A stretch of 64,000 bases of DNA from an uncultured Gemmatimonadales bacterium (GCA_964473155.1 CAYYNT010000009.1:17121-81120), one strand, 5' to 3'; positions 108 to 57,926 are shown, counted from the stretch's first letter. The notes: generated from the sequence alone by a model not told the origin. Made by a program: numbers and translations.

Positions 108-891
108 GACTTCCCCTTTCCAGGTTCCCGAACCTTTTTGCATCGGCGGCGCCAACCGTGGCCGCTGTCCTGACTCCGGTCCGGGCGCAGATATCGGCCA
201 GCGGGCATTCATCGCAGCGCGGAGCGCGTTTGAGGCAGTAGACTACGCATTGACGGTCAAGCAGGGCGTGAAACTCCTGGTAAAGTAACGTGTCCCGCGC
301 GCAGGCGGCCTCGAAACGCGCCTTGAGCGAGCCGTAGCTTTCGTTTTCAGCGGCCCAGCCCAGGCGGTGCAGAAGGCGGCGCGTGTATGAGTCGATCACG
401 AACGTGGGCTGGCACGCGGCGTAGAGAACGATGCAGTCGGCTGTCTCCGGGCCGATGCCGCGAACGCCGAGCAGAAGTTGTCTGAGCGCCGCTGTCTCCA
501 CCCGCAGCAGGTCCTGCCAGCTTAACCCGAAGCGCTCATTTATGAACCTGACCAATGCTTGTATTTTCAGCGCTTTCTGGTTGAAATACCCGGAGGGCCG
601 CAGCAGCGGCGCAAGCTGTTCGAGAGGGACCTCCAGCAGGTGCTGGAAATCGACGAGACCGGCGGAGTAAAGGTTGCCCAGTGCCCTGGCCGCCCCGCGC
701 CAGGCCGTGTTCTGGGCCAGGATCGCTCCCAGCATTACCTCGAGCCTCTGAGTATCGGTGCGCGGTCCGCCGCTGTACTGCGGCTCGCCGCCCTCCTCCG
801 GAGTGACCGGCCACCAGAGCCGCGGCCCGAAATGGTCCATCAGCCGCTCGTACAGCAGCGGCAGCCAAAGTCTGTCCTGTTCTGTGTTCAT
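94..891 (-). CDS. Endonuclease III-family HhH-GPD DNA glycosylase with C-terminal [4Fe-4S] cluster loop
   Basis: HhH-GPD signature LLGVRGIGPETADCIVLYA and a C-terminal Cys-x6-Cys-x2-Cys-x5-Cys motif (CLKRAPRCDECPLADIC) typical of the Nth/MutY Fe-S cluster loop. I chose the internal ATG (MNTEQD...) preceded by GAGAGG; the ORF track allows an upstream start at 951. Confidence 0.75.
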   Translation of the reverse strand: MNTEQDRLWLPLLYERLMDHFGPRLWWPVTPEEGGEPQYSGGPRTDTQRLEVMLGAILAQNTAWRGAARALGNLYSAGLVDFQHLLEVPLEQLAPLLRPSGYFNQKALKIQALVRFINERFGLSWQDLLRVETAALRQLLLGVRGIGPETADCIVLYAACQPTFVIDSYTRRLLHRLGWAAENESYGSLKARFEAACARDTLLYQEFHALLDRQCVVYCLKRAPRCDECPLADICARTGVRTAATVGAADAKRFGNLERGSHEQP

Positions 892-960
892 CCGCCTCTC
901 AATCTCCCGCCGTTCTTGACAGTCCCGTCGATACGCACGATATTTTCCCATTCAGACGGA

Positions 961-3333
961 ATGGAGAAAAATAACATGGCTTTCAGAATCCCACAATTAC
1001 TTGACCGCCCGCAGGTGCGTTTCGGCAGCCTGGGGCTGGCGGCTTTCGCGGTATGCCTCCGGACACTGGGCGCCGGTTTCGTGCAATGGGACGACGGCCT
1101 TCTGACCGACAAGCTGGCATTGCACGGCCTGAGCCTCGAACACCTGCGCGGAATCCTGATTCCATCCGGCATGGCCTGGCAGCCAGTGCGCGACCTGACT
1201 TTCGCCCTGACCTACGCTTTCTCGGGCAGCAGCCCCTGGGGCTATCATCTGGTTAACACATTTCTTTACGTTGCCGTGGCTATCCTGTCCCTTTTCACTC
1301 TGGACGCGATCCTGTCGCGCGCAGGGTTCTCAGGCCGGCAGGGAAGACTGGCAGCCTGGACCGGGGCGCTTCTGTTCACTTTGCACCCGCTGCATGTGGA
1401 AGCTTTCGCCTGGGTCCAGGGCAACAAGGACCTTCTGGCCGGGATGTTCTTCCTCGGCGCTTTCATCCAGCACGGCAAGGCCGCGCGCGCAATCGGAAGA
1501 CAAGCCCTGCTGAGCTATGCCGCCGGTTACTTTCTGTTTATCCTGGCGCTCTGCTCGAAACCATCCGCCGCGGCGTTCCCACTGGTTGTGTTGGCTTTCG
1601 ACCTTCTTCTTCCACCGGTTTCCCCAGACGCGGCTCACAATCCGCGCAAGCGTTTGCTCGCTCTGCATCTGCCCTACTGGGTACCGGCTGCGGCCCTGGC
1701 TGCATATTTCATATTTTTTACCGGGGCGGTCAAGCAGACCGGCTTCACAACAGAGAATTTCCTTGTTCTCCCGCAGATACTTGCAGCCTGCTACAGACTG
1801 GCCGTCCTGCCGGTAGATCTTTTGCACCGCTACCCCGACCCTCAGTTCGCCGGATTCGCCTCGCCGTCTTTCTGGACAGGCTCTCTGATCACAGCTGGAG
1901 CCCTGGCTTTTGTCTGGATCAACAGGCGGAAAAAACCGGCCGAGGCGTTCGGCATGCTCTGGTTTTTTCTCTGCTGGCTGCCTCAGTCGAACATTATCCC
2001 TGTCGCTATCCGCGTGGCGGACCGCTACCTGTTTCTTTCACTCCTCGGCCTGACACTGGTGGTATCGGTTTCAGTCATAAGGCTTTCGGAACGCCTGCAA
2101 CCGTCCGGGCGGATTGCTCTCTGGTCTGGTTTCGGGCTGATCCTGGCCTTTTTCGGCCTTCTGAGCGTACAGCGCGCCGGAGTATGGAAGGATGGCTTGA
2201 CACTCTGGAGCACGGCGGCCAGGAACTGCCCGAAAAACAGTTTTTTCCAGCTCGGTCTGGCCCAAGCGCATATCAGCCACGGAGAACTCGACTCCGCGGC
2301 CGCGGCTTATGAACGCGCACTGGCCCTTGAGCCGGGAAATGTAAAAGCCCTGGTGAACCTGGGGTATACACGCAAGGCGCAGGGCCATCTGGATGAGGCG
2401 CTGTCACTCTACGAGCGTGCACTGTTCCTGGACAGCGGCAATTTCAACGCCCTGAACAGCAGCGGGAACATCCTGGCGCAGCTCGGCCGAGACTCGCTGG
2501 CTGCGGCATTCTACGAGCGCGCCCTGCTTGCCGAGCCGGACAACTACATGGCGCGGGTGAACCTGGCCTCACTGTTGCGTCGCACCGGACGGGAATCGGA
2601 GGCTGATTCCCTGATGAGTGGTCTTGAGCAGGGGAGTCTGCCCCAGCCGGTTGTGTTGCTGCTTCGCGGAAGGCAGTTTATCCAGGAGGGCCGTCTGGAC
2701 AGCGCCCGCTCGCGATTCGAACGCGCTCTGACGCTGGACCGCGAACTGACTCCGGCCCTGGCCGGCCTGGGAGAGATACTCCTGCGCCAGGATTCAGCCG
2801 GGCGGGCGCTTGAAGTGCTCCGCGAAGTCAAATCCGTTGGAGCACCGGACTGGGGTCTGCTGCACAACCTCGGCCTTGCCTTCAGCCGCCTGGGTCAATC
2901 CGATTCGGCGCTGGCATATTATCGCCTGGCCTGGCTCAGTCAACCCGATTCACTGGCCTCGGCCCTGGACTATGCGGTTGCGCTGGCGTCTTCCGACAGC
3001 CTGCCCCGAGCCATCGAAGTCGCCTCAGCCCTGGCCGGGGCGAATCCCGGCGAAACGATGCTGCACTACAACCTCGGAAACTGGCTTCTGCGCCTGGAGC
3101 GCTACAATGAGGCCGCCGACAGCTATCGCGCCGCCCTGAAAGCCAATCCGAAGGATGACAAATCACACCTCAACCTGGGTCTTCTTTACATGCGTTTCCT
3201 GGGACAGCCCGATTCGGCCCTGGCGCATCTTGAGGCCAGCCTGTCCGCCGCTCCCGCCCAGCCGCAGGCACAGACCATCCGGAATGCCATCGAATTGCTG
3301 AAACGGCAGAAAAGCCGGGCTGAAGTTCACTGA
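961..3333 (+). CDS. Multi-pass membrane protein with C-terminal TPR repeats, TMTC/DUF1736-like (putative protein O-glycosyl/mannosyltransferase family)
   Basis: The N-terminal ~500 aa are hydrophobic, with FVQWDD...N and W.P.RDLTFALTY...G.SPWGYHLVN motifs characteristic of TMTC/DUF1736 proteins. The C-terminal ~400 aa hold repeated TPR-like units (AY.RAL.L.P.N). The track ORF begins at 559, overlapping the opposite-strand gene. The first plausible ATG is 961; the ATG at 976 has a better GGAG spacing. Confidence 0.75.
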   Translation: MEKNNMAFRIPQLLDRPQVRFGSLGLAAFAVCLRTLGAGFVQWDDGLLTDKLALHGLSLEHLRGILIPSGMAWQPVRDLTFALTYAFSGSSPWGYHLVNTFLYVAVAILSLFTLDAILSRAGFSGRQGRLAAWTGALLFTLHPLHVEAFAWVQGNKDLLAGMFFLGAFIQHGKAARAIGRQALLSYAAGYFLFILALCSKPSAAAFPLVVLAFDLLLPPVSPDAAHNPRKRLLALHLPYWVPAAALAAYFIFFTGAVKQTGFTTENFLVLPQILAACYRLAVLPVDLLHRYPDPQFAGFASPSFWTGSLITAGALAFVWINRRKKPAEAFGMLWFFLCWLPQSNIIPVAIRVADRYLFLSLLGLTLVVSVSVIRLSERLQPSGRIALWSGFGLILAFFGLLSVQRAGVWKDGLTLWSTAARNCPKNSFFQLGLAQAHISHGELDSAAAAYERALALEPGNVKALVNLGYTRKAQGHLDEALSLYERALFLDSGNFNALNSSGNILAQLGRDSLAAAFYERALLAEPDNYMARVNLASLLRRTGRESEADSLMSGLEQGSLPQPVVLLLRGRQFIQEGRLDSARSRFERALTLDRELTPALAGLGEILLRQDSAGRALEVLREVKSVGAPDWGLLHNLGLAFSRLGQSDSALAYYRLAWLSQPDSLASALDYAVALASSDSLPRAIEVASALAGANPGETMLHYNLGNWLLRLERYNEAADSYRAALKANPKDDKSHLNLGLLYMRFLGQPDSALAHLEASLSAAPAQPQAQTIRNAIELLKRQKSRAEVH

Positions 3334-3345
3334 GCAACGGAGACA

Positions 3346-3386
3346 AAAAGGCCCGCGGAGCAATCATGCTCCGCGGGCTTTTTATT
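3346..3386. terminator. Bidirectional rho-independent terminator between convergent genes
   Basis: Perfect 12-bp stem gcccgcggagca / tgctccgcgggc with a 4-nt loop, flanked by an A-tract upstream and ttttt downstream. It lies between the + gene ending at 3333 and the - gene ending at 3406. Confidence 0.65.
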
Positions 3387-3405
3387 CCGATCTGTCACAG
3401 ATTAT

Positions 3406-4113
3406 TTACTGTGAAACACCGCTTTCCTGGTTGTGCTGGATCACTTTCGTCCCGTCGGGAACCCGGAAAGTAAAGCGTGACTCCGCTATTTTCGGGTTTA
3501 ACCGGTGACTGGAGTACTCATAAATCGAACGGTCGCCGTTTGTCTGTACAATTTCAGTGCGCACCGGGTACCAGCGTCCCTCTGTAACAGTCAGCAGAAC
3601 TTTCTGAATCCCCAGCACCGGACTTGCCGCCGAGGCCCCCTGGATGGGAACCAATCCCAGGGTGATAAGCTCAGCGCCGGAGCTCTCGCGCTGACGGGAT
3701 TCGAGGCTCACCTGGAACTGCTCACGGATACGCGCCGCAGAACCGCCGAATCCGACGAACAGTGCGCTCATGTCCTTGGCCTGCTTGACCGAAAACTCGT
3801 GCACCTGCTTGAGATCGGGGTAATGCAGCCAGCCGCGGTTATGGTTGATAATCAACTGCTGGTGCTCAGGGGACTGTGTGTCCAGCACCAGCTTGTCCGG
3901 ATTACGGAAATAGAACTTCCCGCTCGATACGATTTTCTCATCGAAAACTGTCATGATTTTGGTCTGGACGAAATCCGCCTGCATGTCCTCCAGGCGGGCC
4001 GAACTCTCGGCCATGCGGTCCAGGACCTGATCGACGCTCATCCCGGCCGCCTGTGCCATCCCTGAAAGAGCCAGAACAAAAAACCAGATCAGCAGAACTA
4101 ATCCTTTTCTCAT
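3406..4113 (-). CDS. LolA-family outer-membrane lipoprotein carrier-like periplasmic protein
   Basis: Signal peptide MRKGLVLLIWFFVLALSGMAQA. The LolA-like pattern F.Q.....F......SG.F....P.KL.LD.......LI.N....W.Y.P.L.QV is present. I chose the ATG (MRKG) preceded by GAGGGTGA; the track ORF starts 12 nt upstream at a GTG. Confidence 0.65.
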   Translation of the reverse strand: MRKGLVLLIWFFVLALSGMAQAAGMSVDQVLDRMAESSARLEDMQADFVQTKIMTVFDEKIVSSGKFYFRNPDKLVLDTQSPEHQQLIINHNRGWLHYPDLKQVHEFSVKQAKDMSALFVGFGGSAARIREQFQVSLESRQRESSGAELITLGLVPIQGASAASPVLGIQKVLLTVTEGRWYPVRTEIVQTNGDRSIYEYSSHRLNPKIAESRFTFRVPDGTKVIQHNQESGVSQ

Positions 4114-4138
4114 CTTCAGTATCACCCTCGCCTTGTTT

Positions 4139-5161
4139 TCAGGCCTGCGCCGCCACCCCTGAGGTATCGCGCCGCACCGAGTGGGCGCTGAAATATTCCC
4201 TCAGAAGTTCACCCATCGGTTTGTCAAGATATGAGCGTATGGAAACATAACAGCCGCCGCAATCGTTGTGCGGCAGGAATTCCTTGTGGATCTGACGGAT
4301 CGAGGTGTACTTGCGCTCATGCATCGAACAGGGTTTCAGGAACCCGTCAGGCGTCACCACCAGAAATCGCAATCCGGCGCTGCACGGCTTGATCTCGCCC
4401 TGCTCGAAAAACTTGTAAGTGCCCTCGATGTTAAAATCGGCGTTCTGGATAAGCCCGCAATGAGATTTCTTATACTCAAGCAACTGATCGAGCTGGTCGC
4501 GAAGAACGGCCAGGTCCTCGGGAGTTTCGATGGTATAGGCCCTCTCGCCGGTGCGCAGCACCGAATAGGCGCTGAACGAGGTGGAAACTCCCCAGCGCTC
4601 GGCAACTTTCGCCAGGTCCATGATATGAGGCATGTTCTCGCGGGTTATCGCGCTGTTGAGCACGATGTCATCATAGCCCAGGGCCGCCAGTTCCGGGATG
4701 GTGCGGTCCAGATGATCGAACAGTCCCTTGATGTGCCGCCAGTCATCGTGACGGCGGTCCGGGAAGCAGAGCGAAATAGAAAGCTGGTTTATCCCGGCCT
4801 CGCGCAGCTTGAGATACCTTTCGCGGTCCAGCAGCCAGCCGTTGGAAACCACTATAAGATAAGGGGCTTCATGGCCCGCCGGCTTGATCGCCCTGAGCAC
4901 GTCCTCCAGGTCATCCCGAAGCAGCGGCTCACCACCCGAAACCTGCACTATCATCGGCTTGAGCACGCGCATCAGACGGCGGTAATCCTCCGCGCCGATA
5001 CGCTTCTCATCCGGCACCAGGCCACCCATGTTGCAATGGTTGCAGTTGGCGTTACAGCAATGTGTCATCTCCAGAGAGACGACAGTGGGATAACCGAGAG
5101 CATATCCCGGGATTCCGCGGGTCAACAGCGCCGCGGTCTGTCTCTTGGTCAGCTTTCTCAT
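4139..5161 (-). CDS. Radical SAM enzyme with C-terminal SPASM/twitch-like auxiliary Fe-S domain
   Basis: CCNANCNHC (CxxxCxxC) radical SAM cluster motif near the N-terminus, followed by a VSGGEPLL glycine-rich SAM motif. The C-terminal cysteines C-x17-PC (CSAGLRFLVVTPDGFLKPC) and CGGC fit SPASM. The start ATG overlaps the upstream ATPase stop (ATGA), suggesting translational coupling. Confidence 0.7.
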   Translation of the reverse strand: MRKLTKRQTAALLTRGIPGYALGYPTVVSLEMTHCCNANCNHCNMGGLVPDEKRIGAEDYRRLMRVLKPMIVQVSGGEPLLRDDLEDVLRAIKPAGHEAPYLIVVSNGWLLDRERYLKLREAGINQLSISLCFPDRRHDDWRHIKGLFDHLDRTIPELAALGYDDIVLNSAITRENMPHIMDLAKVAERWGVSTSFSAYSVLRTGERAYTIETPEDLAVLRDQLDQLLEYKKSHCGLIQNADFNIEGTYKFFEQGEIKPCSAGLRFLVVTPDGFLKPCSMHERKYTSIRQIHKEFLPHNDCGGCYVSIRSYLDKPMGELLREYFSAHSVRRDTSGVAAQA

Positions 5162-5856
5162 GTCAACTCTTCTTTAGTGTCGCTTATGCATCCGTCAACC
5201 AGATGCAGCGTACGGTCTCCCTGTCTGGCCACCAGCGGATCGTGGGTGACCATGATAATAGTCTGGTTACGCTCGCCGTGCAGACGCTCGAAAATCTCGA
5301 GGACCCGCCGGGTGTTTTCGCGGTCCAGCGAACCTGTCGGCTCATCCGCCAGCAGGATCGACGGACGCCGCACGAGCGCGCGGGCAATAGCCACCCGCTG
5401 CTGCTCCCCGATGGAAAGCTCGCGCGGGTGATGTTGCATCTTGTTGCCCAGACCGACCATCGCAAGCAGTTCGCGGGGATCGGCGAAATCACCCCGCCCG
5501 TTGCCGAACAGGGTAAGTTTAAGGGCAATGGCCACGTTTTCCAGCGCGGTGAGCGTGGGCAGGAGGTTGAACCGCTGGAAAACGAAACCTATCTTTTCAT
5601 ACCGCAGGCGGGTTGTCCCGCTGTCGCCACGTCCGGTCAGTTCCTGGCCGTCCAGCCAGATTCGGCCCTCCGTCACTGGAGCCAGACCGCCGATCAGGTA
5701 GAGCAGTGTGCTCTTGCCCGAGCCGGACGGCCCCATCAGGCTGAAAAACTCTCCATGTGATACACTAAAAGTAATGCCTTTCAGTATACGGCTGGTCGTG
5801 CTGCCGATAGAATAATCCTTGACAACGCTTTCAACGACAACAGCCTGTCTGTCCAA
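5158..5856 (-). CDS. ABC transporter ATP-binding protein (LolD/MacB/FtsE-type), with no permease gene adjacent
   Basis: Walker A GPSGSGKST, Q-loop, ABC signature LSIGEQQRVAIARAL, Walker B ILLADEPTGSLD and an H-loop are all present. There is no in-frame ATG at the N-terminus; the track start is a TTG with weak GGGA spacing, so the start is uncertain. Confidence 0.75.
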   Translation of the reverse strand: MDRQAVVVESVVKDYSIGSTTSRILKGITFSVSHGEFFSLMGPSGSGKSTLLYLIGGLAPVTEGRIWLDGQELTGRGDSGTTRLRYEKIGFVFQRFNLLPTLTALENVAIALKLTLFGNGRGDFADPRELLAMVGLGNKMQHHPRELSIGEQQRVAIARALVRRPSILLADEPTGSLDRENTRRVLEIFERLHGERNQTIIMVTHDPLVARQGDRTLHLVDGCISDTKEELT

Positions 5857-5966
5857 AGTCCCGGAAATAAAAAAATCCCCTGTCTACGATACTGAAAGGG
5901 TCAGATCGCTGTTTTATGATTTGCTGGCCGGCGGGTATCGCCGTATGATAAGTGCTCACCGCGCTT

Positions 5967-5995
5967 AGTATATTCTAATACAGTAATTATGTCAA
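5967..5995 (-). promoter_or_regulatory. Sigma70-like promoter for the ABC-ATPase / radical SAM / LolA-like operon
   Basis: On the minus strand: TTGACA, a 17-nt spacer, then TATACT, an almost consensus -35/-10. It is followed by a ~100-nt leader ending in a T7 run just before the TTG start. Confidence 0.45.
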
Positions 5996-6045
5996 GATTT
6001 TACCGTCCCCGGCGAACGCTGACTAAATGAACGTTCCCCGGAGCG

Positions 6046-8388
6046 TCAAAGTTTCCATCTGAAAAGACCGTCCGTTTCCCCGTACACTTCCTGGTAACGC
6101 CAGAAATTTGTGAGGACTTGCAAATTATAATCATAAGTTTCATCCAGCGGTATCAGCTCGACAAACAGGTCCAGGTCGAACTCGCTCTCGCGGTCTCCGT
6201 GAGAGCGCTCCAGCCAGGCGGGCAGGTTGCGCGGGTCGGCGTTGTAAGAGCTTATAGCCAGCGCGATATTGCCGTTATACTTTTTCAGGTTCGAGGACAG
6301 GAAGCGCGTTCCCAGGGCAATATTGATCTCCGGTTCGAGCAGACGCGCCGCGCTGACTGTGCCGTATCCGGCCGCGCGCCCCAGCCGCCGTCCCACGGAC
6401 GGCAGCAGTTGCATCAGACCCACAGCCCCGGCGTGGCTTTTCGCGCGCGGATGAAAATTCGATTCCTGGCGCATCACTGCGGTTACAAGGGCAGGCGGGA
6501 TGCCGTTCTTGCGGCCGTGAGTCGCAATGTAGCCCCGGAAAGGCTCGGGATGAATATAAGCTATTTCCCAGAAACCGGAAGGCAGCCCCTCTCCACCTTT
6601 CTGCAGGTAATCCCGGAAAGGACCGCGGAATGTGCGCAGGACACGATGGTACCAGCCCGCCTGGTACAGGTTCTCATGCATCCGGAATCGCAGAAGGTCA
6701 TCCTGCGGTGTAATATTCAGTCCGTTGCTGTAAATGTAGGCCGCCTCGGCGTAAAAGCCCATGGCGCGCCAGACCGCGGCTGTCTTCTGTATTTCCGCTC
6801 CCTGACGGGTGTAGGTCTGGGGAAATTTCGGGGCATCCATTGCAGGCAGGTCCCCGGCGGGATTTAGAGGCGTGGCGTTCCTCAGCCTCGAGCGGAGCGC
6901 CCGCGCCCGGATGCCGTAATAGGTGTACGGATACGCCTGGGCCAGTGCGTTGAAAGCCCTTAACGCTCCAACCGAATCCCCCAGTGTAAGCCGCGCCTTA
7001 CCCAGAAACAGCATCGCCCGTGACCAGTGCAGCGGGTCACGGCGATCTGTTTTTTCAAACGCGCCCAGGTTCTGTGCCACAGCCAGATAATCAAATTTGA
7101 GGTAATCAGTCAGGGCGATGTACCAGTAAATCTGGTTTACAGCCCCGGAATCCGGCCTCTCGGCGGCGAGACGGTTCAGCCGGTCAAGGGCCTGGTCAAA
7201 ACGGTCCTGCTCAATCAATCCGAGGGCATCCAGGATACAAACCCTGAAATAGTCCGGCGTGCCGTGGTAACGCTGTCCCATCTGCTCCGCCAGCTTCCGG
7301 ACTTTTCCGAAATGCTCATCCGCAAGATTTTTATATTTCTGTGCCGTCGAGCGGCGGCTCTTTCCGCCGTATTTTCGCCAGGCATAATCGTTCTTGCGCG
7401 AAATTGCCATGCTTTTCTTGCCGCACTGATACAGGAAATCCGCCCGGATTGACAGAAACTCTGGCAGGCGGGGGCTGGAGGGATAGCGCGCCGCGAAATC
7501 CTCACTGGCCCTGTCCAGCCGGCCGGCCTGCATGACATTGTCCGACAGCGCCCGCACCGGGAAACCGTCCCGGATCAGACGGGCGTTCTCTATCGCGGCG
7601 ATCTCTGCCTCGGGAGAGCCCGGCCAGGTCTCGATCAGACGGGTGAACGCGGTCCGTCCCGCTCCGCCCAGGCCGCGCCCCCAATCGAGCATGCGCGCCG
7701 GAGGGATGTCCGGCGCGCCGGAACCCTTGAGCGCCCAGATCAGCCGGTATGAATCGATGGCCTGGCCTGAGGTTGGAACTTCGTTCCAGAGTGTTTCAAA
7801 AGCCCGGCGGGCAAGCTCCCCGTCGCCACGCGCAGCCAGGCGGAATCCGGAAAGCAGAAGGAGACGGCGCCAGAAGCGGCTCAGAGGGTATTTTGACTTA
7901 TACTCCAAAGAGGCTTCCAGCAGCGCCCGGCCATCTCCCCAGCGCTCGGAAATCAGGCGGGCATTGTCCGTGTATTCGGCCAGAAAAGGCAGACCGGGCT
8001 GAAGAGCGGTGAATGCCTCCGCCGCTCGGCGGTAATCCGGCAGGAACGGCGGGTTGGAGATCGGCAGACGGCTGAAAGAGGGGGCGCTGGACACAATCTG
8101 CGATATAAAATCATCCTCCAGGTCCATGGCCTTCTGGTTAAGGGCCACGGCCCGGGCCAGACGGCGCGCCTGGCTTATCTCACCTGTCCCGGCATCCACC
8201 TCGGCGATTACCGCGGCATAGGTCCGGCGGCGAGCGGCGGGGGTCTGGTCGAAACTTTCCTGAAGACTCTCCACCAGGGGATCGGCAGCCCGCAGTGGTG
8301 ATGTTTCCAGCGGAAAGATTAACAGTCCTGTTAGTAAAAGGAACGCGGATCGTCTCAAAATCATCCCAATGGCTCGGGTCCCAGGCAA
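6046..8388 (-). CDS. Soluble lytic murein transglycosylase (Slt70-like): superhelical N-terminal domain plus C-terminal SLT domain
   Basis: The C-terminal SLT catalytic region ALVTAVMRQESNFHPRAKSHAGAVGLMQLLPSV carries the E-S motif and a GLMQ box. An N-terminal signal peptide follows a possible alternative start MILRR at 8364. The long helical-repeat N-terminal region is typical of Slt70. Confidence 0.75.
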   Translation of the reverse strand: MPGTRAIGMILRRSAFLLLTGLLIFPLETSPLRAADPLVESLQESFDQTPAARRRTYAAVIAEVDAGTGEISQARRLARAVALNQKAMDLEDDFISQIVSSAPSFSRLPISNPPFLPDYRRAAEAFTALQPGLPFLAEYTDNARLISERWGDGRALLEASLEYKSKYPLSRFWRRLLLLSGFRLAARGDGELARRAFETLWNEVPTSGQAIDSYRLIWALKGSGAPDIPPARMLDWGRGLGGAGRTAFTRLIETWPGSPEAEIAAIENARLIRDGFPVRALSDNVMQAGRLDRASEDFAARYPSSPRLPEFLSIRADFLYQCGKKSMAISRKNDYAWRKYGGKSRRSTAQKYKNLADEHFGKVRKLAEQMGQRYHGTPDYFRVCILDALGLIEQDRFDQALDRLNRLAAERPDSGAVNQIYWYIALTDYLKFDYLAVAQNLGAFEKTDRRDPLHWSRAMLFLGKARLTLGDSVGALRAFNALAQAYPYTYYGIRARALRSRLRNATPLNPAGDLPAMDAPKFPQTYTRQGAEIQKTAAVWRAMGFYAEAAYIYSNGLNITPQDDLLRFRMHENLYQAGWYHRVLRTFRGPFRDYLQKGGEGLPSGFWEIAYIHPEPFRGYIATHGRKNGIPPALVTAVMRQESNFHPRAKSHAGAVGLMQLLPSVGRRLGRAAGYGTVSAARLLEPEINIALGTRFLSSNLKKYNGNIALAISSYNADPRNLPAWLERSHGDRESEFDLDLFVELIPLDETYDYNLQVLTNFWRYQEVYGETDGLFRWKL

Positions 8389-8407: not shown

Positions 8408-9208
8408 TCAACTCATAACCTCCCGCAGCAGGGCTCCATGCAGTTCGGGCGTCCCGGCGGCGACCACTCCCTCAGGATGTCCATCCGTAAAAACGCCGCC
8501 ATCGCAGGCGCTGACCACTCCTCCCGCCTCGCGAACCAGAAGGACACCGGCTGCCGTATCCCAGGGTTTCAGGCTTTTCTCCCAGTACCCGTCGAACCGT
8601 CCAGCCGCCACGCAGGCCAGATCATAGGCCGCGCTGCCATCGCGCCGCACCGCAAAACTGGCGGCCAGAAGCCGTCTGAACGGTACAAGATTCCGCTCGA
8701 GCACTCCAGGCTGACGGAGATCGTAAGGGAACCCGGTTACAAGAAAGGAACGGCTTAAATCTGTCTGAGATGATACAGCCAGCCTTCGTCCGCCCATCCA
8801 GGCGCCTCCACCACGGATGGCAGTGAACATCTCCGCCGTCGCCGGCTGATACACCACCCCCATGCATGTTTCACCCTCATGCTTCAGGGCGATTGAGACA
8901 GCGAAACAGGGGTAACCGTGGGCATAGTTTGTCGTACCGTCCAGCGGGTCTATCACCCAGAGCCAGGGTGAACCGCCCAGTGAACGCGTGTGCTCCTCGG
9001 CCAGAAAATCGTGATCCGTAAATTCGCTTTCCAGCCGCCCGACTATCAATTCCTCGACCCGGCGATCCAGTTCAGTCACGGGATCGATCTCGCCTTTCAA
9101 CTGCATGCCCACATCCGTGCCCAGCCGCGACATCAGAAGGCCGCCAGCCTCGAGCGCCAGAGCGCGGGCCATATCGAGGGCCTTTTCGACAGTTTTTTTC
9201 AGTGTCAT
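8408..9208 (-). CDS. Inositol monophosphatase family protein (SuhB/ImpA-like)
   Basis: Metal-binding motifs DFLAEEH...WVIDPLDGTTNYAHG and WDTAAG are present. I chose the ATG (MTLKKT) preceded by GGAGAG; the track start is 18 nt upstream. Confidence 0.75.
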   Translation of the reverse strand: MTLKKTVEKALDMARALALEAGGLLMSRLGTDVGMQLKGEIDPVTELDRRVEELIVGRLESEFTDHDFLAEEHTRSLGGSPWLWVIDPLDGTTNYAHGYPCFAVSIALKHEGETCMGVVYQPATAEMFTAIRGGGAWMGGRRLAVSSQTDLSRSFLVTGFPYDLRQPGVLERNLVPFRRLLAASFAVRRDGSAAYDLACVAAGRFDGYWEKSLKPWDTAAGVLLVREAGGVVSACDGGVFTDGHPEGVVAAGTPELHGALLREVMS

Positions 9209-9391
9209 CCAGCTCTCCAACGTCAATTACCTGACCACGACTCCAGACCACGGTCCCTTAGATAAACAAACCTATAAAATAACCCGGCCTCTCCGGGTGT
9301 CAAGCGGAACAGTCAGCTTGCCAGCATGGTGTTCTCAGGCTATTATTACATGGCTTTCCTTTGGTTTTCCTCCCTGTAGACGGAGCCATAC

Positions 9392-10600
9392 ATGATTGCA
9401 TTCAGATTTTTTCTGCCACCGCTCTTTTATCTTCTGCTTAGCATCCATCCCTGCCGGGCCTGCGTGCTGGAGCCTGTGCTTACAGGTCTGGACGTGCTGA
9501 AAGCAGACAATTTCCAGCCTCTCAAAGGGCTGCGGGTGGGCGTGATAACCAATCACACGGGATTGGACCGGGCAGGGGAATCCATCCTTGACCTTCTGGC
9601 CGCCTGCCCGGATGTCCGGTTAGCCGCCGTGTTCGCCCCAGAGCATGGACTGAAAGGCAGGCTGGACAGCGAATACGGTCATTCAAACCTGGTGGGGAAA
9701 AACACGCCGGTCTACAGTCTATACGGCAAGACCCGCAAACCGGAGCGAAAATGGCTTGAAGGCCTGGACATACTGGTGTTCGATATCCAGGATATCGGGA
9801 CGCGGTTCTATACTTACATCACCACGCTGGCCCTGGCGATGCAGGCAGCCTCCGAGGCCGGGATCGGTATCATGGTTCTGGACCGGCCCAACCCGATCGG
9901 CGGACTGGCGGTGGAAGGGCCGGTGCTGGAAAACGCGCTGAAGGGCAATTTCATCGCATACTACCCCATCCCGGTGCGTCACGGTCTGACCGTGGGTGAA
10001 CTGGCTGGGATGTTCAACTCTGAGTTCAATATCGGAGCGAAACTGACTGTGATCCGGATGCAGGGCTGGCGGCGCTCGATGCTCTGGGAGGATACAGGCC
10101 TGAAATGGGTGAATCCCTCGCCCAACATGCGCAGTCCCATGGCGGCGCTGCTTTATCCGGGGCTGGGGATCGCCGAGGCGGCCAACCTCTCGGTCGGACG
10201 GGGCACGGAAAGGCCGTTCGAGATTTATGGAGCGCCCTGGATAACTGACAGCGGGCTGGCTGACGTCCTGAACGAGGCCGCCCTCCCCGGCGTGCGCTTT
10301 GTGGATACTACTTTCACGCCCTCCGCATATGTTTTCAAGGGCGAGGCGTGCCGTGGCGTCAGGGCTGAAGTCACAAATTCGCGGGAGTTCCGCAGCCTGG
10401 ATGCCGGACTTCATTTTCTGTCCACGCTGCAGCGCCTTTACCCGGACAAATTCGACCTGTCAAAAATAGACCTCTGGATCGGCAGGCGGGACGTGAAGGA
10501 CCGGATACGCCGCGGAGAACCGGCCGATTCGATCTCAGCGGGCTGGAAAGCGGGGCTGGATCAGTTCAAGACGATCCGCGAGAAGTATCTTCTTTATTAA
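9392..10600 (+). CDS. DUF1343-family protein (exo-beta-N-acetylmuramidase NamZ-like)
   Basis: The ~400-aa protein has a signal-like N-terminus and a GVITNHTG...LFAPEHG...DIQDIG..Y.Y pattern, as in the DUF1343 (YbbC/NamZ) family. It is divergent from suhB-like and sits near the lytic transglycosylase. Confidence 0.55.
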   Translation: MIAFRFFLPPLFYLLLSIHPCRACVLEPVLTGLDVLKADNFQPLKGLRVGVITNHTGLDRAGESILDLLAACPDVRLAAVFAPEHGLKGRLDSEYGHSNLVGKNTPVYSLYGKTRKPERKWLEGLDILVFDIQDIGTRFYTYITTLALAMQAASEAGIGIMVLDRPNPIGGLAVEGPVLENALKGNFIAYYPIPVRHGLTVGELAGMFNSEFNIGAKLTVIRMQGWRRSMLWEDTGLKWVNPSPNMRSPMAALLYPGLGIAEAANLSVGRGTERPFEIYGAPWITDSGLADVLNEAALPGVRFVDTTFTPSAYVFKGEACRGVRAEVTNSREFRSLDAGLHFLSTLQRLYPDKFDLSKIDLWIGRRDVKDRIRRGEPADSISAGWKAGLDQFKTIREKYLLY

Positions 10601-16252: not shown

Positions 16253-18283
16253 TCAGAATCCGCATTCCAGTCTCAATATCACTGTCCTTCCATCCTGCTG
16301 CACCAGTTCCTGGAGCAGCGGCAAGCCGGCCGGATAGGCATAACTGGCGTCAAAAAGGTTACGCACTTTGAACGCAAGGCGGAGGCGTTCCGGGACTATA
16401 TCTCCGGTAAGGTTTAAGTCGAATACAGTGAAAGAGTCCGCAGTGATATTTTTCTCGGAACGGCGCGAGGAGGAATAACGGCATTGCAGCGCCGCAGTCA
16501 GGCCAGGCTTGAAAGAGGCTGATGCGCCGGACTGAACGAGGTGGCGTGGAGAATTGGGAAGACGTTCTCCGCTTGCACCGGCGCGCGGAAGCTGGTATGA
16601 GTAATTCAGGTACGCACCATACCCGGAGAGAAAATCACCCCGCAATCCGGCCTCAAAACCGTGCGATTTCATGTGCCCCATGTTCATGAAACGGCTCAGA
16701 TGTTCGCCCGAGGCTTCCACCTGCTCGATGAAATCCCGCATTATATTGTTGTAAACCGAAAATGATCCATGCAAGCCGTGGGCAAAACGGCCCTCGGCCA
16801 CCAGTTCCAGCGTCTCGATTTTCTCGGGTTTGAGCCCGGGGTTCCCCTCGGCGATGAAAGGCGCTTCATAGAAGACCTCATTTATATTAGGGGCGCGGAA
16901 CGCCCCACCGTAAAGCAGTTTGATCGAACTGTTCCGCGACGCCGCCCAGACAAGGGCCGCTCTCGGCACGGTGGACTCGTTTCGCGAGGCGTATTTTTCA
17001 TAACGCAAACCCACGCTTAACAGAAGAGTCGGGTGCAATTGAAGCTCCTGCTGCAGATACGCGGAAAAAGCATTGAACGGGTGGTTCTGATCGTAATATA
17101 CGATCTGCGGGTTCCAGGAGCGGTAAAAGGCCCGTGGGTGTCTCTGCATCTCGGTCCCGGCGATAATCCGAAGGAAAGGCTGCGGGTCCCACAGATAACG
17201 CGCCTCACCCCCGTAGTGGTTCTCGGCGAACTTCTCCCCTGCCGGTATTCCGCCGAACCGGTATGATCCGCGCTGGCCATAATGATCGTAGTATCCGCGC
17301 AGCATCAGTTCGTGACCTGTCGCCAGGCTGCGTTCGTACTTGATCTCGCCGAACTTGAACTCCTCGTAGAAATACGAGAGCGGATCGTTGAAGTCCATGT
17401 ACCAGGGGGCGGTAGGCACGCCTTTTTTTCGGGCGTTAAGATATCCCTGAAAACTGAAATCGCCCCAGGATGCGGTGGCGAGGAGGCTCTGCTGCCGCTC
17501 CCAGTCGGCATCCTCCGCCACTCCGTTGTTTGCCGCCGGTGAATCGTATTCCGGGAAGTACAAGTCCTGACCCTCCGCGCGGGTAACCCGTCCGGAAAGC
17601 ATGAAATCCGAGCCGCCGGCGGTCTGGTGGCCGGCTGTAACGCCGATGGTTTTCCGCCCGAAACTTCCCAATTCACCATAAGCTTCCATACCGTCCACGC
17701 CACCGCCGTTGCGAGTTATCACGTTGATCACCGCGAACATGGCGCTCGTGCCATACAGCACCGATCCCGGCCCGCGCACGATCTCAATCCTCTCGACCGC
17801 ATCCAGATTCAATCCGAAATCATTGCCAAAGAACGAGGAGCCGAAATAGTTCTCGTTTACGGTATGCCCGTTGATCATCAGCAGCAGACGGTTGTTGTTG
17901 TCCGCGGTCCGGTTGAATCCGCGCGTGCCGATAAAATCGAGAAGGCGGTCGTTGGTCAGGTAGAAGCCCCGGATGTTCTCCAGGACCTCCGACAGAGTCC
18001 GGTAGCCAAAACGCGATATCTCATCCGCGGTCACGATTGTCACGGCCGCGGGGGCTTCGCCAGCGGTCTGCTCGTATTTAGAGACAGTGCTGATCCTCAC
18101 GCCCAGAAGCGAATCGAGCGCGGACCACCCCGCTGCTCCCTCCTGGGCCACGAGAAGCCCGGGAAAGACTAAAAGAACAAGAGAAAAAAGACAGTACTTT
18201 ATGACATTTGACGGATGCAAAGGTTCTCCACAGGTTCGATTAATGCCAAACTGGTTAGAAGTGTGTTTATTTGTTTGGATCAA
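16253..18283 (-). CDS. TonB-dependent outer-membrane receptor
   Basis: Signal peptide, then a plug region (EIVRGPGSVLYGTSAMFAVINVITR) and a long beta-barrel region rich in alternating aromatics and glycines. The C-terminus ends in F (...LRLECGF). Confidence 0.8.
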   Translation of the reverse strand: MIQTNKHTSNQFGINRTCGEPLHPSNVIKYCLFSLVLLVFPGLLVAQEGAAGWSALDSLLGVRISTVSKYEQTAGEAPAAVTIVTADEISRFGYRTLSEVLENIRGFYLTNDRLLDFIGTRGFNRTADNNNRLLLMINGHTVNENYFGSSFFGNDFGLNLDAVERIEIVRGPGSVLYGTSAMFAVINVITRNGGGVDGMEAYGELGSFGRKTIGVTAGHQTAGGSDFMLSGRVTRAEGQDLYFPEYDSPAANNGVAEDADWERQQSLLATASWGDFSFQGYLNARKKGVPTAPWYMDFNDPLSYFYEEFKFGEIKYERSLATGHELMLRGYYDHYGQRGSYRFGGIPAGEKFAENHYGGEARYLWDPQPFLRIIAGTEMQRHPRAFYRSWNPQIVYYDQNHPFNAFSAYLQQELQLHPTLLLSVGLRYEKYASRNESTVPRAALVWAASRNSSIKLLYGGAFRAPNINEVFYEAPFIAEGNPGLKPEKIETLELVAEGRFAHGLHGSFSVYNNIMRDFIEQVEASGEHLSRFMNMGHMKSHGFEAGLRGDFLSGYGAYLNYSYQLPRAGASGERLPNSPRHLVQSGASASFKPGLTAALQCRYSSSRRSEKNITADSFTVFDLNLTGDIVPERLRLAFKVRNLFDASYAYPAGLPLLQELVQQDGRTVILRLECGF

Positions 18284-18618
18284 ATCCCCCTCGGTCCCTT
18301 AACGAAGGAGGATAGACGGGTTTGTGTGTTTTAATAATTTTCCAACACGCTTTTAGCCCGGATTATTCATAAATCATTCTAACTTCTTGAAAGAAATAGA
18401 TTTTTCATCATCGAGGCCCCGATAAATAGGAGAGCCTGCCCGAATTCGTCCGGGCGGCCATGGGGGGGCCGCTCCTACAAGAAATAATTTTTTATGAATA
18501 AGCCGGGTGAGATAACAACAGTTCAATAATAAAAGCATCCCCTGAGAATTCGTCAGACTACTTGCCACCCGCTCGAATCGATAACTTTCATTCCGTTTTT
18601 TCATTCTGAATAGACAAG

Positions 18619-50791: not shown

Positions 50792-51025
50792 TACCGGGGA
50801 ATTTATGCTGTCACCTTGCTTTCGCAATCAAAAACAATATTCGAGCCGTTCTATCAATCCCCTGCAACAGGCGTCGAAGGTAAAAGTGAAAAGGTGAAGA
50901 ATAGAGCCGGAGGTGTCAAATCAGTTGCTTTTCCCGGCACATGTCTCTTAATTTCAAATGATGCCTGTATAATATGTGTTCTGATAACTGTCTGTATATG
51001 TTCTCCAATTCAGCCTGTGCGGCTT

Positions 51026-52057
51026 ATGCATAGAATAACGAGGATACTGCCGGCATTAGCCCTGGCCGGTCTCTGGGCCATGCCCTGCCTGGCCTGCGAT
51101 GTACCGGTGTTCCGTTATGCCCTGGAACGCTGGACCCCGGCGGTGTACGAGCTGAACGTTATCGCTCCTCAGGGCAATCCCGCGAACGATACTCCACCCG
51201 TCAACTCCCTGCAAAGCCTTCTGGACAGCGCAAACTGCGCTTTACATTACAGCGGCTCCGGCGCGTCCGTCAGCGGGGGCGTCATCCCGCGGATGGAACT
51301 CGCATATCGCGACTGGCAGGGGGAAAAAATCTTAATATGGTCCGGCCGGGCGTCGGCTGAAAATGTCGAAAAGCTTGTCGATTCTCCAGCCCGCAGGGAG
51401 ATAGCCGGGAAACTACTGGGCGGCGCGACAGCGGTCTGGGTGTTTCTCGAGTGCGAGGACAGGGCGAAAAACGAGGCCGCGCTGGGACGGCTGGAAACGG
51501 CCCTGGACCAGATCGAGCGGAGCCTGACTCTGCCGGAATCGGTGACACGCCTGCAAGAGTCCATGACAGGCAAGCTGCGGGTTGACTTCCCTGTCGTGAA
51601 AATCCAGGGTTCGAGCGAGGCGGAAAAAATCCTGGTCGACATGCTGATCCGCTCCGAGCCGGACCTGGAGTCCTACAGGACTGAGCCGATGGCATTTCCG
51701 GTATTCGGACGGGGGCGTGTGCTTTACGCTCTGGCGGGAGATGGCATCGACAGCGTGAATACCGCCGGGGCGTGCGTTTTCCTGGCCGGTCCATGCGCCT
51801 GCGAGATAAAAGAATCGAACCCGGGAATGGACCTGCTCATGCGGGCCGGATGGGCCTCGGGTATCGGGGAGAGCTGGGTCGACGCCTCGGAAAACGTGTC
51901 GTTGTCCAGCCTCGCCGCCCTGGCGGGAGGCAGGCCGGATGACAACTCCGGCGGGAAACTGTTTCATGGTGTCGTAATAACGCTGCTGACCGTGCTTATA
52001 CTCGTTGGAGCCGGGAGCGTAGTGCTCCTGAGAAAGATCAGGAGAAGGGACCGATGA
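51026..52057 (+). CDS. Exported protein of unknown function with signal peptide and C-terminal transmembrane anchor
   Basis: MHRITRILPALALAGLWAMPCLAC signal. A soluble ~280-aa region with several Cys follows. The C-terminus has a TM helix VVITLLTVLILVGAGSVVLL followed by RKIRRRDR. The stop overlaps the next start (ATGA). The track ORF begins further upstream at a TTG; I chose the first ATG before the signal peptide. Confidence 0.5.
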   Translation: MHRITRILPALALAGLWAMPCLACDVPVFRYALERWTPAVYELNVIAPQGNPANDTPPVNSLQSLLDSANCALHYSGSGASVSGGVIPRMELAYRDWQGEKILIWSGRASAENVEKLVDSPARREIAGKLLGGATAVWVFLECEDRAKNEAALGRLETALDQIERSLTLPESVTRLQESMTGKLRVDFPVVKIQGSSEAEKILVDMLIRSEPDLESYRTEPMAFPVFGRGRVLYALAGDGIDSVNTAGACVFLAGPCACEIKESNPGMDLLMRAGWASGIGESWVDASENVSLSSLAALAGGRPDDNSGGKLFHGVVITLLTVLILVGAGSVVLLRKIRRRDR

Positions 52058-53334: not shown

Positions 53335-53341
53335 GGCGCGG

Positions 53342-54007
53342 ATGTTGAACCTTGATTCGATAACGAGAGTCTACCGCCGTAAGAACGGGAATCCGGTCGT
53401 GGCGCTCGACAGCGTCTCGCTTTCGGTCCGGCCCGGCGAGTTCGTGGTCCTCCAGGGCCCCAGCGGAAGCGGCAAGACCACCCTGCTCCTGACAGCCGGG
53501 GGCCTTCTGCCCCCGGCCTCCGGCGCGGTAAAGCTGGAGGAGCGCGACATCTATACCCTGCCCGCGGGCGAACTCGCCAGGGTGCGGGCGAAAAAAATCG
53601 GGTTCGTTTTCCAGCAGTTCCATCTGATACCCTACCTGAATGTCCTCGAAAACGTGCTTGCGCCCTCGCTGGCCTGTCCGGACCCTGGTGCGCGGGAGCG
53701 CGCCTTTTCGCTCCTCGAAGAGCTGGGTCTCGACCGGAGGGCCGGCCACTTCCCCTCCGAGCTGAGCACCGGGGAGCGTCAGCGGACAGCCCTTGCAAGG
53801 GCGCTGCTCAACCAGCCGCCGCTCATACTGGCGGATGAACCCACCGGCAACCTGGACCGCGACAATTCACGCATAGTAACCGGTCACCTCTGCCGGTTCG
53901 TGTCCTCGGGCGGCGCGGTGCTGATGGTGACGCACGGGCCGGACAGCCTCTCCTTCGCTCACCGGCGGGTCGACATCATGGAGGGCAAGATTGTCTCCGC
54001 GGATTGA
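53342..54007 (+). CDS. ABC transporter ATP-binding protein (LolD/MacB-type)
   Basis: Walker A GPSGSGKTTL, signature LSTGERQRTALARAL, Walker B ILADEPTGNLD. A GGGAGGA RBS precedes the ATG at 53342. Confidence 0.8.
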   Translation: MLNLDSITRVYRRKNGNPVVALDSVSLSVRPGEFVVLQGPSGSGKTTLLLTAGGLLPPASGAVKLEERDIYTLPAGELARVRAKKIGFVFQQFHLIPYLNVLENVLAPSLACPDPGARERAFSLLEELGLDRRAGHFPSELSTGERQRTALARALLNQPPLILADEPTGNLDRDNSRIVTGHLCRFVSSGGAVLMVTHGPDSLSFAHRRVDIMEGKIVSAD

Positions 54008-54020
54008 AAATACCTTACTC

Positions 54021-57900: not shown

Positions 57901-57926
57901 TTAATCTGACAAGAGGATTATTTTTG

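Follow-up and report, generated by a model that had tools for sequence, protein, structure and literature searches.

The 64,000-nucleotide stretch of DNA analysed here (the window) stems from an uncultured Gemmatimonadales bacterium (GCA_964473155.1 CAYYNT010000009.1:17121-81120) and contains three head-to-tail open reading frames (ORFs), all on the minus strand, which code for an ATP-binding cassette (ABC) ATPase, a radical S-adenosylmethionine (SAM) protein (rSAM), and a LolA-family carrier. Based on gene context, we tentatively propose that this operon couples a membrane-lipid tailoring enzyme, the rSAM, to Lol-type envelope transport. Its closest relatives (70-100% identity) are found in metagenome-assembled genomes of Candidatus Glassbacteria. 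The elements of the operon, listed in the direction of transcription, are as follows.

5967..5995, (-) strand: sigma-70-type promoter, with the -35 hexamer TTGACA at 5995-5990, a 17-nt spacer, and the -10 hexamer TATACT at 5972-5967.
5857..5966, (-) strand: 5' leader of ~100 nt, in which no regulatory RNA was recognised.
5158-5856, (-) strand: ABC ATPase gene, 232 amino acids (Pfam ABC_tran).
4139-5161, (-) strand: rSAM gene, 340 amino acids (Pfam Radical_SAM).
3406-4125, (-) strand: LolA-family carrier gene, with an alternative ATG start at 4113 (ORF and Pfam LolA).
3351..3378, listed on the (-) strand by the terminator scan: GC-rich 12-bp hairpin with T-runs, an intrinsic terminator.

The involvement of the rSAM in lipid metabolism is suggested by the genes that surround other members of its family, which were surveyed at 162 loci (80 genomic, 80 metagenomic, and the remainder from look-ups) by means of profiles derived from the recurring neighbours. 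In the metagenomic locus L093, one packed co-directional operon contains the genes of a lipoprotein (designated c30; 433-1338), an FtsX permease (to 2429), an ABC ATPase (2472-3194), a VTT protein (3191-3874), a LolA (3864-4577), a Tes of 633 amino acids (4555-6456), and the family rSAM (6468-7460). In L074, a locus from Krumholzibacteria, genes in the order OEP-c30-FtsX-ABC-VTT-LolA-Tes are convergent with the rSAM gene. Tes also precedes the rSAM in L044 (Omnitrophota) and follows it in L092. Proteins were assigned to Tes if they reached the cut-off of at least 450 bits on NF045702 and carried the N-terminal Zn_ribbon_HMPTM domain (PF23545); the copies of L074, L093, and L044 scored 533, 537, and 549.5 bits, respectively, all with this domain, and the L092 copy, which is cut by the contig end, reached 309-366 bits against the full-length Tes proteins. 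The window rSAM itself is not a Tes, as it scored 16 bits against the L093 Tes (phmmer).

The L044 cluster encodes, in this order, a 1427-amino-acid protein, a VTT protein, c30, Tes, the rSAM, a phosphatidylinositol-phosphate (PIP)-synthase-like enzyme, and inositol-1-phosphate synthase. The 1427-amino-acid protein contains two BcrAD_BadFG domains and DUF2229, the "BBD" architecture that is conserved in the ether-lipid enzyme Ger/PlsA (PMC13159169), and the PIP-synthase-like enzyme, a CDP-alcohol transferase, remained below the cut-offs of both archaetidylinositol-phosphate synthase (160.7 bits, cut-off 180) and PIP synthase (143, cut-off 170). Current candidates for the synthesis of branched glycerol dialkyl glycerol tetraethers (GDGTs) include Ger/PlsA and bacterial homologues of Tes (PMC8941075, PMC10087280, PMC13159169), and the predicted gene content of L044 matches the proposed branched GDGT pathway plus an extra rSAM of the family. 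Inositol-phosphate synthase, a GT4 glycosyltransferase, the rSAM, and a PIP-synthase-like enzyme are encoded co-directionally in two loci from Dehalococcoidia (L048, L071). A VTT/DedA gene is found near the rSAM at 28 of the 162 loci; it directly adjoins the rSAM gene in two Chloroflexota subclades and in Latescibacterota, and lies within the cluster in the Omnitrophota and Krumholzibacteria-like loci. Furthermore, two fusion proteins were found, namely a VTT-rSAM fusion that is 40% identical to the window rSAM (P0285; L171 445-2151) and an NTP_transferase-rSAM fusion that is 32% identical to it (P0299; L172 5054-6808). The gene of the latter is followed by genes for LPG_synthase_TM, PMT_2, and a 463-amino-acid CDP-alcohol phosphatidyltransferase and is preceded, two genes away and in opposite orientation, by an FtsX permease gene. 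In the Gemmatimonadota locus L063, the neighbouring genes code for a protein of the OmpA family and an LtaS/EptA-like membrane protein of the sulfatase family. Across the rSAM family as a whole, lipid genes are repeatedly annotated near the rSAM gene or fused to it, in lineages independent of one another.

The link to envelope transport likewise extends beyond the Glassbacteria. Parts of a Lol-like module were detected within 10 kb of the rSAM gene at 32 of the 162 loci, and at 16 of the 44 loci for which 8 kb or more are available on each side. In its full form, the module is made up of five components: the c30 lipoprotein, an FtsX permease, an ABC ATPase, a VTT/DedA protein or a protein designated c18, and LolA. 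Of these, c30 corresponds to the LolA_like lipoprotein PF17131 with a conserved lipobox cysteine, and the permease is of the MacB_PCD/FtsX type with a length of 364-366 amino acids. The module ATPases are 45-48% identical to the window ATPase (47-48% in Terriglobia and L093, 45% in L074), and the LolA proteins are 23-30% identical to the window LolA over the full length. On the NCBIfam lolCE model the module permeases scored 45-60 bits against a cut-off of 362 and thus are not LolCE by NCBI criteria. The c18 protein is a conserved single-pass membrane protein of 156 amino acids without Pfam or NCBIfam match (for example L003 14274-14744, minus strand, Terriglobia); the possibility that it is a cryptic VTT protein was rejected (hhalign probability 0.2%). 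The rSAM gene lies within 0-9 kb of the LolA_like-lipoprotein/FtsX/ABC/LolA module in Terriglobia, Krumholzibacteria-like bacteria, and other lineages, with a spacing between LolA and rSAM of 50 nt to 6.8 kb in the Terriglobia and a directly convergent orientation of both genes in L020 and L107. The module-linked loci are spread over several branches of the rSAM tree, which comprise several Terriglobia clades, the Krumholzibacteria locus L074 and the related metagenomic locus L093, L072, and the Glassbacteria. In L074, the module is headed by a TolC-like OEP gene (17111-18523, minus strand), so that parts of tripartite exporters and Lol-like parts are mixed there.

An earlier sequence-only reading of the operon had suggested that the rSAM is wired into a Lol-like module and that it takes the slot of the permease. 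The former agrees with the synteny within the Glassbacteria and with the proximity of rSAM and module in other phyla. The latter picture proved wrong because the permease is normally encoded upstream of the ATPase; the slot between ABC ATPase and LolA, which contains the rSAM in the Glassbacteria, is held elsewhere by the VTT/DedA protein or the single-pass c18. When the c30 profile was used to search for a detached c30/FtsX pair in the Glassbacteria, the top 120 matches, which carried no organism names, were closest to the Terriglobia-type query rows, and none of them was recognisable as a Glassbacteria member.

Within the window, the genes of the ABC ATPase, the rSAM, and the LolA carrier form a single transcription unit, as indicated by one conserved promoter, translational coupling, and one terminator. 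The promoter scan found 11 of 12 consensus matches for TTGACA-17-TATACT, and promoter-like sites in the 3.5-kb region numbered 4 compared to 1.3 expected. In an alignment of the regions upstream of the ATPase gene, a TTGAC(A)-N17-TAnAnT pair was present in all eight Glassbacteria loci, and the strict pattern TTGA[CT]A-N16-18-TAnnnT matched in seven of them, the exception being L011, which reads TTGACT. We consider the promoter real because both hexamers and their spacing are retained in the eight loci while the spacer sequence and flanks have diverged. The stop codon of the ATPase gene and the start codon of the rSAM gene overlap as ATGA (5158-5161), and the gap between the rSAM and LolA genes is 13 or 25 nt depending on the LolA start, for which public gene callers choose the ATG at 4113. 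The earlier description of a promoter with a ~100-nt leader that drives three linked genes, with an ATGA overlap and a short gap ahead of LolA, was thus accurate. A riboswitch or attenuator in the leader was ruled out, as the leader matched no Rfam family, its predicted fold was no more stable than that of shuffled sequence (z = -0.18), and, of the other loci in the eight-locus alignment, only the closest relative (L010) retains the leader sequence. The terminator hairpin reads aaaaaGGCCCGCGGAGC…GCTCCGCGGGCttttt; an Rfam match to His_leader falls on this hairpin (3351-3378) and is spurious.

The order of the operon is part of a larger syntenic block, whose further genes in the window are listed below.

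6046-8388, (-) strand: Slt-type lytic transglycosylase (SLT) gene (Pfam SLT, 90.6 bits), beginning 19 nt after the inositol-monophosphatase-family gene.
8408-9226, (-) strand: inositol-monophosphatase-family (IMPase) gene (Pfam Inositol_P, 231 bits).
9392-10600, (+) strand: NamZ exo-MurNAc hydrolase gene, divergent from and beside the IMPase-family gene.

In every Glassbacteria locus of sufficient length, a divergent NamZ gene is followed by the five co-directional genes IMPase-SLT-ABC-rSAM-LolA. The complete order including NamZ was found in L001, L010, L173, and L174, and the five-gene block holds down to ~58-60% LolA identity. The synteny of the three operon genes in relatives, on which the sequence-only reading had made its interpretation depend, is therefore retained across the Glassbacteria; the tight ABC-rSAM-LolA order was found in Glassbacteria only. 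The interval between the SLT and ATPase genes has a length of 190 nt and contains the promoter. The IMPase-family gene two genes upstream of the operon fits an inositol theme, but carries little weight given that this family is ubiquitous.

The rSAM has the CX3CX2C motif of radical SAM enzymes (C36, C40, C43), which is invariant in two alignments, of 15 and 9 sequences, and a GGEP SAM motif. In its C-terminal part only four cysteines are invariant (C260, C278, C301, C304), which suffice for one auxiliary cluster but do not make up a seven-cysteine motif. The C-terminal domain is therefore predicted to be Twitch-like with one auxiliary-cluster site. The SPASM domain that had been assumed previously was not recovered, since no match to PF13186 was obtained even at E<=10 and Pfam recognised Radical_SAM alone; neither a recognition domain for ribosomally synthesized and post-translationally modified peptides (RiPPs) nor any other additional Pfam domain was detected. 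No hydrophobic segment or signal peptide was found in the protein, which is thus expected to be cytoplasmic. Among the NCBIfam models, the best scores were those of archaeal MoaA (76.7 bits, cut-off 325) and AhbD (73.5, cut-off 500), with further matches to the "rSAM with lipoprotein" family TIGR04133 (64.7, cut-off 425), MftC (62.3, cut-off 265), PqqE (51.4, cut-off 381), and HpnH (37.3, cut-off 225). No NCBIfam cut-off was reached; the anSME model, which was not scored separately, was absent among the best 25 of 51 matches. By these hidden Markov models, the rSAM classifies neither as HpnH nor as any cofactor enzyme, a housekeeping assignment that would have spoken against the sequence-only reading.

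An AlphaFold2 model of the rSAM (pLDDT 86.5) had its nearest solved folds in BlsE, SkfB, SuiB, CteB, MoaA, GDGT-MAS, DesII, viperin, and BtrN, with TM scores of ~0.4-0.6, the first six of these at ~0.5-0.6; the match to BlsE (7vob) had an E-value of 8e-14 and a TM score of 0.61. BlsE and SkfB are Twitch enzymes with a single auxiliary cluster. Members of the rSAM family with ~46-53% identity occur in Glassbacteria, Acidobacteriota (Terriglobia, Solibacteraceae, Bryobacterales), Chloroflexota (mostly Dehalococcoidia), Omnitrophota, Latescibacterota, Krumholzibacteria, and Gemmatimonadota. This degree of identity and the ~75 positions that are invariant across phyla are consistent with one conserved function. 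When 1.84 billion representatives were scanned exhaustively with HMMER, only 68 clusters (50% identity) were obtained at E<=1e-30; the family is compact and well delimited and comprises uncharacterised proteins of ~330-340 amino acids. In many Acidobacteriota/Terriglobia loci, the family rSAM is divergently adjoined by a second rSAM of 319 amino acids with the domains Radical_SAM and Fer4_12 (for example L003 6595-7554, minus strand), which is ~27% identical to the family and is claimed by no NCBIfam family. Tandem duplications of the rSAM (~45% identity) were found in Chloroflexota (L050, L073, L083, L084, L132, L138, L150). In a large Dehalococcoidia clade, the gene of a class I methyltransferase of 309-318 amino acids overlaps the rSAM start, and an 88-amino-acid 2x[4Fe-4S] ferredoxin gene follows.

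The protein encoded at 5158-5856 (Pfam ABC_tran, 118 bits) is predicted to be a complete ABC ATPase of the MacB/LolD/DevA/FtsE type, with the Walker A, signature, Walker B, and H-loop motifs all readable. Its best NCBIfam match was LolD (TIGR02211; 207.8 bits, cut-off 307.75), followed by DevA (201.6, cut-off 295.8) and FtsE (192.5). The only FtsX permease encoded in the window (52054-53334) is paired with its own ATPase; it scored 65 bits on the module-permease profile, compared to 427-675 for members of the module, and 37 bits on lolCE (cut-off 362). The FtsX-ABC system to which it belongs (50816-57860) was rejected as the missing partner of the operon based on its own ATPase and the poor module-profile score. 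This separate MacB-type system on the plus strand consists of a 413-amino-acid protein, the MacB_PCD/FtsX permease, an ABC ATPase (53291-54007) whose gene overlaps the permease gene, and a 1289-amino-acid PQQ_2 protein with BamB-like beta-propeller repeats; the 413-amino-acid protein matched no Pfam or NCBIfam family and is not an FtsX paralogue. The description of the operon's ATPase as an orphan is correct at the local level, as it has no FtsX-type permease within 10 kb in the Glassbacteria loci.

The carrier (3406-4125; 235-239 amino acids) has the N-terminus MRKGLVLLIWFFVLALSGMAQA/AG, which represents a type I signal peptide (reading …LALSGMAQA/AG) without lipobox cysteine. It passes Pfam LolA with 56.9 bits (cut-off 23.6), but falls below the NCBIfam LolA equivalog (88.4, cut-off 112), and its second-best NCBIfam match is LolA2_flexi (77.8, cut-off 125). 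The labels LolD and LolA given to the two proteins from sequence inspection thus hold as family-level likeness, whereas neither reaches the cut-off of the respective NCBIfam equivalog. The carrier is 26% identical to the LolA of the L093 operon over the full length (E = 3e-25). Its relatives found in databases by a word-index search are almost all of the Glassbacteria type, with the same operon in each one checked, and NCBI labels the Glassbacteria orthologues as LolA.

In the proposed mechanism, the rSAM would act in the cytoplasm by means of its SAM-cleaving [4Fe-4S] site and the cysteines for one auxiliary cluster, and would modify a membrane lipid or lipid precursor. It may tailor a polar head group or nucleotide-activated polyol; the presence of inositol-phosphate synthase, PIP-synthase-like enzymes, and nucleotidyltransferases among its partners speaks for this option, which would also fit the small-molecule Twitch relatives and the precedent of calditol synthase. 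Alternatively, it may modify the hydrocarbon core, as suggested by the Tes and Ger/PlsA-type partners; we lean slightly towards the head group. The ATPase would power an FtsX permease of the MacB/LolC type whose gene lies elsewhere in the genome; this permease would pull a hydrophobic cargo from the inner membrane and pass it to the secreted LolA-like carrier for transfer to the outer membrane. What is carried would be either the lipid modified by the rSAM or lipoproteins that are built on this lipid. The Glassbacteria operon may be a reduced form of the fuller module that consists of c30, FtsX, ABC, a VTT or small membrane protein, LolA, and in some cases Tes and the rSAM. A more far-reaching version, according to which the rSAM family catalyses an unrecognised step in the synthesis of bacterial ether, membrane-spanning, or inositol lipids, the pathway that leads to branched GDGT-type lipids, and the module, whose ATPase and carrier are retained in the Glassbacteria operon, is a dedicated machine for flipping, extraction, and outer-membrane delivery of these lipids in diderm bacteria, is regarded as rather improbable.

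Several observations weigh against the proposed coupling of lipid tailoring and transport. Homologues of Tes, Ger, inositol-phosphate synthase, CDP-alcohol transferase, VTT, and c30 are absent from the 64-kb window, and the lipid link of the Glassbacteria operon therefore comes from family membership. In all Glassbacteria loci examined, the 10 kb around the operon are free of FtsX-type permease genes. Tes adjoins the rSAM at only four loci from two lineages, and inositol genes were found next to it in only three lineages. Many members of the family, including most from Dehalococcoidia and many from Acidobacteriota, are located among housekeeping genes and have no lipid or Lol partners. The Terriglobia loci are mutually related and thus represent few independent events, and the similarity of the rSAM to solved structures is at the level of the generic Twitch/SPASM fold, from which no substrate assignment follows. 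In L072, an FtsX-ABC pair of the module type stands in a housekeeping context, behind prfB-lysS, and the Lol-like module may therefore serve these phyla as their ordinary Lol system rather than as a dedicated lipid exporter.

The latter point leads to an alternative that we consider unlikely, but weightier than the other rivals, namely that ATPase and carrier are a LolD and LolA of general lipoprotein sorting and the rSAM is a co-regulated lipid or envelope enzyme whose product is not the cargo. In addition to the L072 context, LolD and LolA are the top NCBIfam matches, NCBI calls the Glassbacteria orthologues LolA, and the SLT and NamZ genes upstream are cell-wall housekeeping genes. The window contains one LolA-type gene and the Glassbacteria one orthologous group, although the word-index search is blind to a second LolA. 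Elsewhere, the module is complete as a Lol pathway, with permease, ATPase, carrier, and a LolA_like outer-membrane lipoprotein that possibly replaces LolB. Set against this are the missed equivalog cut-offs for LolD and LolA and the low lolCE scores of the module permeases, as well as the co-transcription with Tes, VTT, and rSAM in L093 and the OEP gene at the head of the L074 module, which would be unexpected for general sorting; it is these features that favour a dedicated lipid system. The proximity of rSAM and module also recurs in several phyla despite rearrangements. This alternative still takes the rSAM as a lipid enzyme and differs from the proposed coupling in the cargo only.

According to the sequence-only reading, the substrate would be a peptide, or rather a protein or lipoprotein handled by the LolA-like carrier, with the rSAM as a SPASM-type maturase. 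The peptide maturases SkfB, SuiB, and CteB are indeed among the nearest solved structures, the rSAM gene is situated between Lol-like genes, and there are weak NCBIfam matches to peptide-maturase families and to the "rSAM with lipoprotein" family TIGR04133; yet the equally close folds of BlsE, MoaA, BtrN, DesII, and viperin belong to enzymes that act on small molecules, and the rSAM has one auxiliary-cluster site and neither a SPASM nor a RiPP-recognition domain. No conserved small ORF or leader was found near the operon in eight Glassbacteria upstream regions, as judged from nucleotide conservation, and the leader itself is not conserved beyond the closest relative. A 42-amino-acid ORF (5831-5959, minus strand) was rejected as a precursor peptide because its sequence is not conserved beyond the closest relative, which was judged on nucleotides, not translations. 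Among the neighbours of the surveyed rSAM genes no small ORF recurs, save the 88-amino-acid ferredoxin in Dehalococcoidia. The recurrent partners and fusion domains belong to lipid or head-group enzymes and to VTT/DedA proteins, a family of putative lipid scramblases, and never to a precursor peptide, protease, or RiPP-type exporter. Many members of the family come from Dehalococcoidia and Chloroflexia, where no Lol genes accompany them; the Dehalococcoidia are not known to have an outer membrane. Owing to the missing SPASM and RiPP-recognition domains, the lack of a conserved small ORF, the Lol-free Chloroflexota, and the lipid partners and fusions, a lipid is favoured over a protein as substrate: judging from these genomic data, a peptide, protein, or lipoprotein substrate appears unlikely, and the maturase hypothesis in its full form is highly improbable. 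A historical accident, in which an rSAM of an unrelated pathway (e.g., anaerobe cofactor biosynthesis) was inserted between lolD and lolA in the ancestor of the Glassbacteria and all other associations reflect chance and shared ancestry, is very improbable as well. It would explain why the best, albeit weak, NCBIfam matches are the cofactor enzymes MoaA and AhbD, why most members of the family have housekeeping neighbours (proC, coaD, rsmD, leuS, clpC, SpoU), and why the three genes stand in tight succession in a single candidate phylum only. However, the cofactor scores are far below their cut-offs, the proximity to the Lol module in at least four lineages and the proximity to or fusion with lipid genes in at least five occur in varied arrangements, and translational coupling and the conserved promoter favour selected co-expression.

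Two further regions of the window deserve mention, which are listed below.

559-3333, (+) strand: gene of a TPR membrane protein, 924 amino acids (782-787 amino acids as called in relatives), convergent on lolA.
57924-60644, (+) strand: ORF of 906 amino acids with a class I SAM methyltransferase domain (~93-193) and a TonB-dependent-receptor Plug domain (306-402).

The TPR protein has a polytopic N-terminal membrane domain without Pfam match and ~10 C-terminal TPR repeats, and its gene keeps this position in the majority of Glassbacteria loci, though not in every one. The hairpin at 3351-3378, read on the other strand, probably also terminates this gene. The 906-amino-acid ORF is either an unusual fusion or represents two genes read as one.

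Branched tetraether lipids serve as palaeoclimate proxies, and their makers, the enzymes involved, and their transport to the outer membrane are long-standing questions. The candidates for branched tetraether synthesis in the literature found were only Tes, Mss, Ger/PlsA, and Elb (PMC8941075, PMC13159169, PMC10087280, PMC11868695), and full-text searches yielded no paper that links rSAM and LolA, Tes and LolA, rSAM and DedA in a lipid context, or rSAM and inositol-lipid genes. The rSAM family described here, with ~50% identity over at least seven phyla, a location beside Tes, Ger-type, PIP-synthase-like, and VTT genes, and a tie to a Lol-type transporter, is a concrete candidate gene in this context. 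If the cargo is not a lipid, the operon would still be a conserved envelope operon with an uncharacterised rSAM.

Among known systems, the LolCDE-LolA-LolB pathway of E. coli, with its LolDF variants in other diderms, shares the MacB-type ATPase and the secreted LolA-fold carrier with the operon, and related loci add the MacB_PCD/FtsX permease and the LolA_like lipoprotein, which would complete the route from the inner to the outer membrane. It differs from the operon, in which no permease is encoded within 10 kb and the rSAM is coupled between ATPase and carrier, and from its relatives, which co-transcribe VTT/DedA and Tes. The exporters DevBCA-HgdD and MacAB-TolC, which transport glycolipids and macrolides, respectively, are comparable in that DevA is the second-best match of the ATPase and a TolC-like OEP gene heads the L074 module; in contrast to these systems, no HlyD/DevB membrane-fusion gene was seen, LolA-fold carriers are present instead, and the DevA cut-off was not reached. 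The flexirubin locus of Bacteroidota contains LolA2 and LolB2, Lol-fold carriers in a locus for a hydrophobic outer-membrane molecule that have been proposed to be pathway-specific (PMC11885536). The LolA2_flexi score of the window carrier lies below the cut-off of this family; polyketide and aryl-polyene genes are lacking here, the unit includes rSAM chemistry and an ABC ATPase, and the relatives of the operon carry ether, tetraether, and inositol-lipid genes. If the transporter of the operon moves a lipid, it would extend this still-hypothetical precedent to bulk membrane lipids.

The rSAM may be compared with two groups of enzymes. The sugar, cyclitol, and nucleotide Twitch enzymes BlsE, BtrN, DesII, MoaA, and viperin are among its best matches and likewise have a C-terminal domain with a single auxiliary cluster; the inositol-phosphate and nucleotide-activated-alcohol partners fit their substrate class, but the identity is only 14-23% and the substrate-binding residues are not transferable. 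The published catalogue of lipid-modifying rSAMs lists Tes/GDGT-MAS, Mss, Gms, GrsA/B, Gmm, Cds, HpnH/J/P/R, Jaw5, and the ladderane enzymes (PMC13459092), and the family of the window rSAM is absent from it. Identity with Gms was rejected, as Gms is longer than 420 amino acids and has a full SPASM domain, and Grs, Gmm, and Ted, which are B12-binding and comprise at least ~495 amino acids, are set apart by size and domain content. Common to the lipid rSAMs and the family are the radical SAM core, an auxiliary Fe-S site, and the setting in lipid clusters, in four loci beside Tes itself, and the calditol synthase Cds is a precedent for an rSAM that tailors the head group of a lipid and not only its tails. 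Lol-type trafficking and lipid rSAM chemistry, each of a known kind, would thus be combined in this operon, a combination for which the support is real but indirect.

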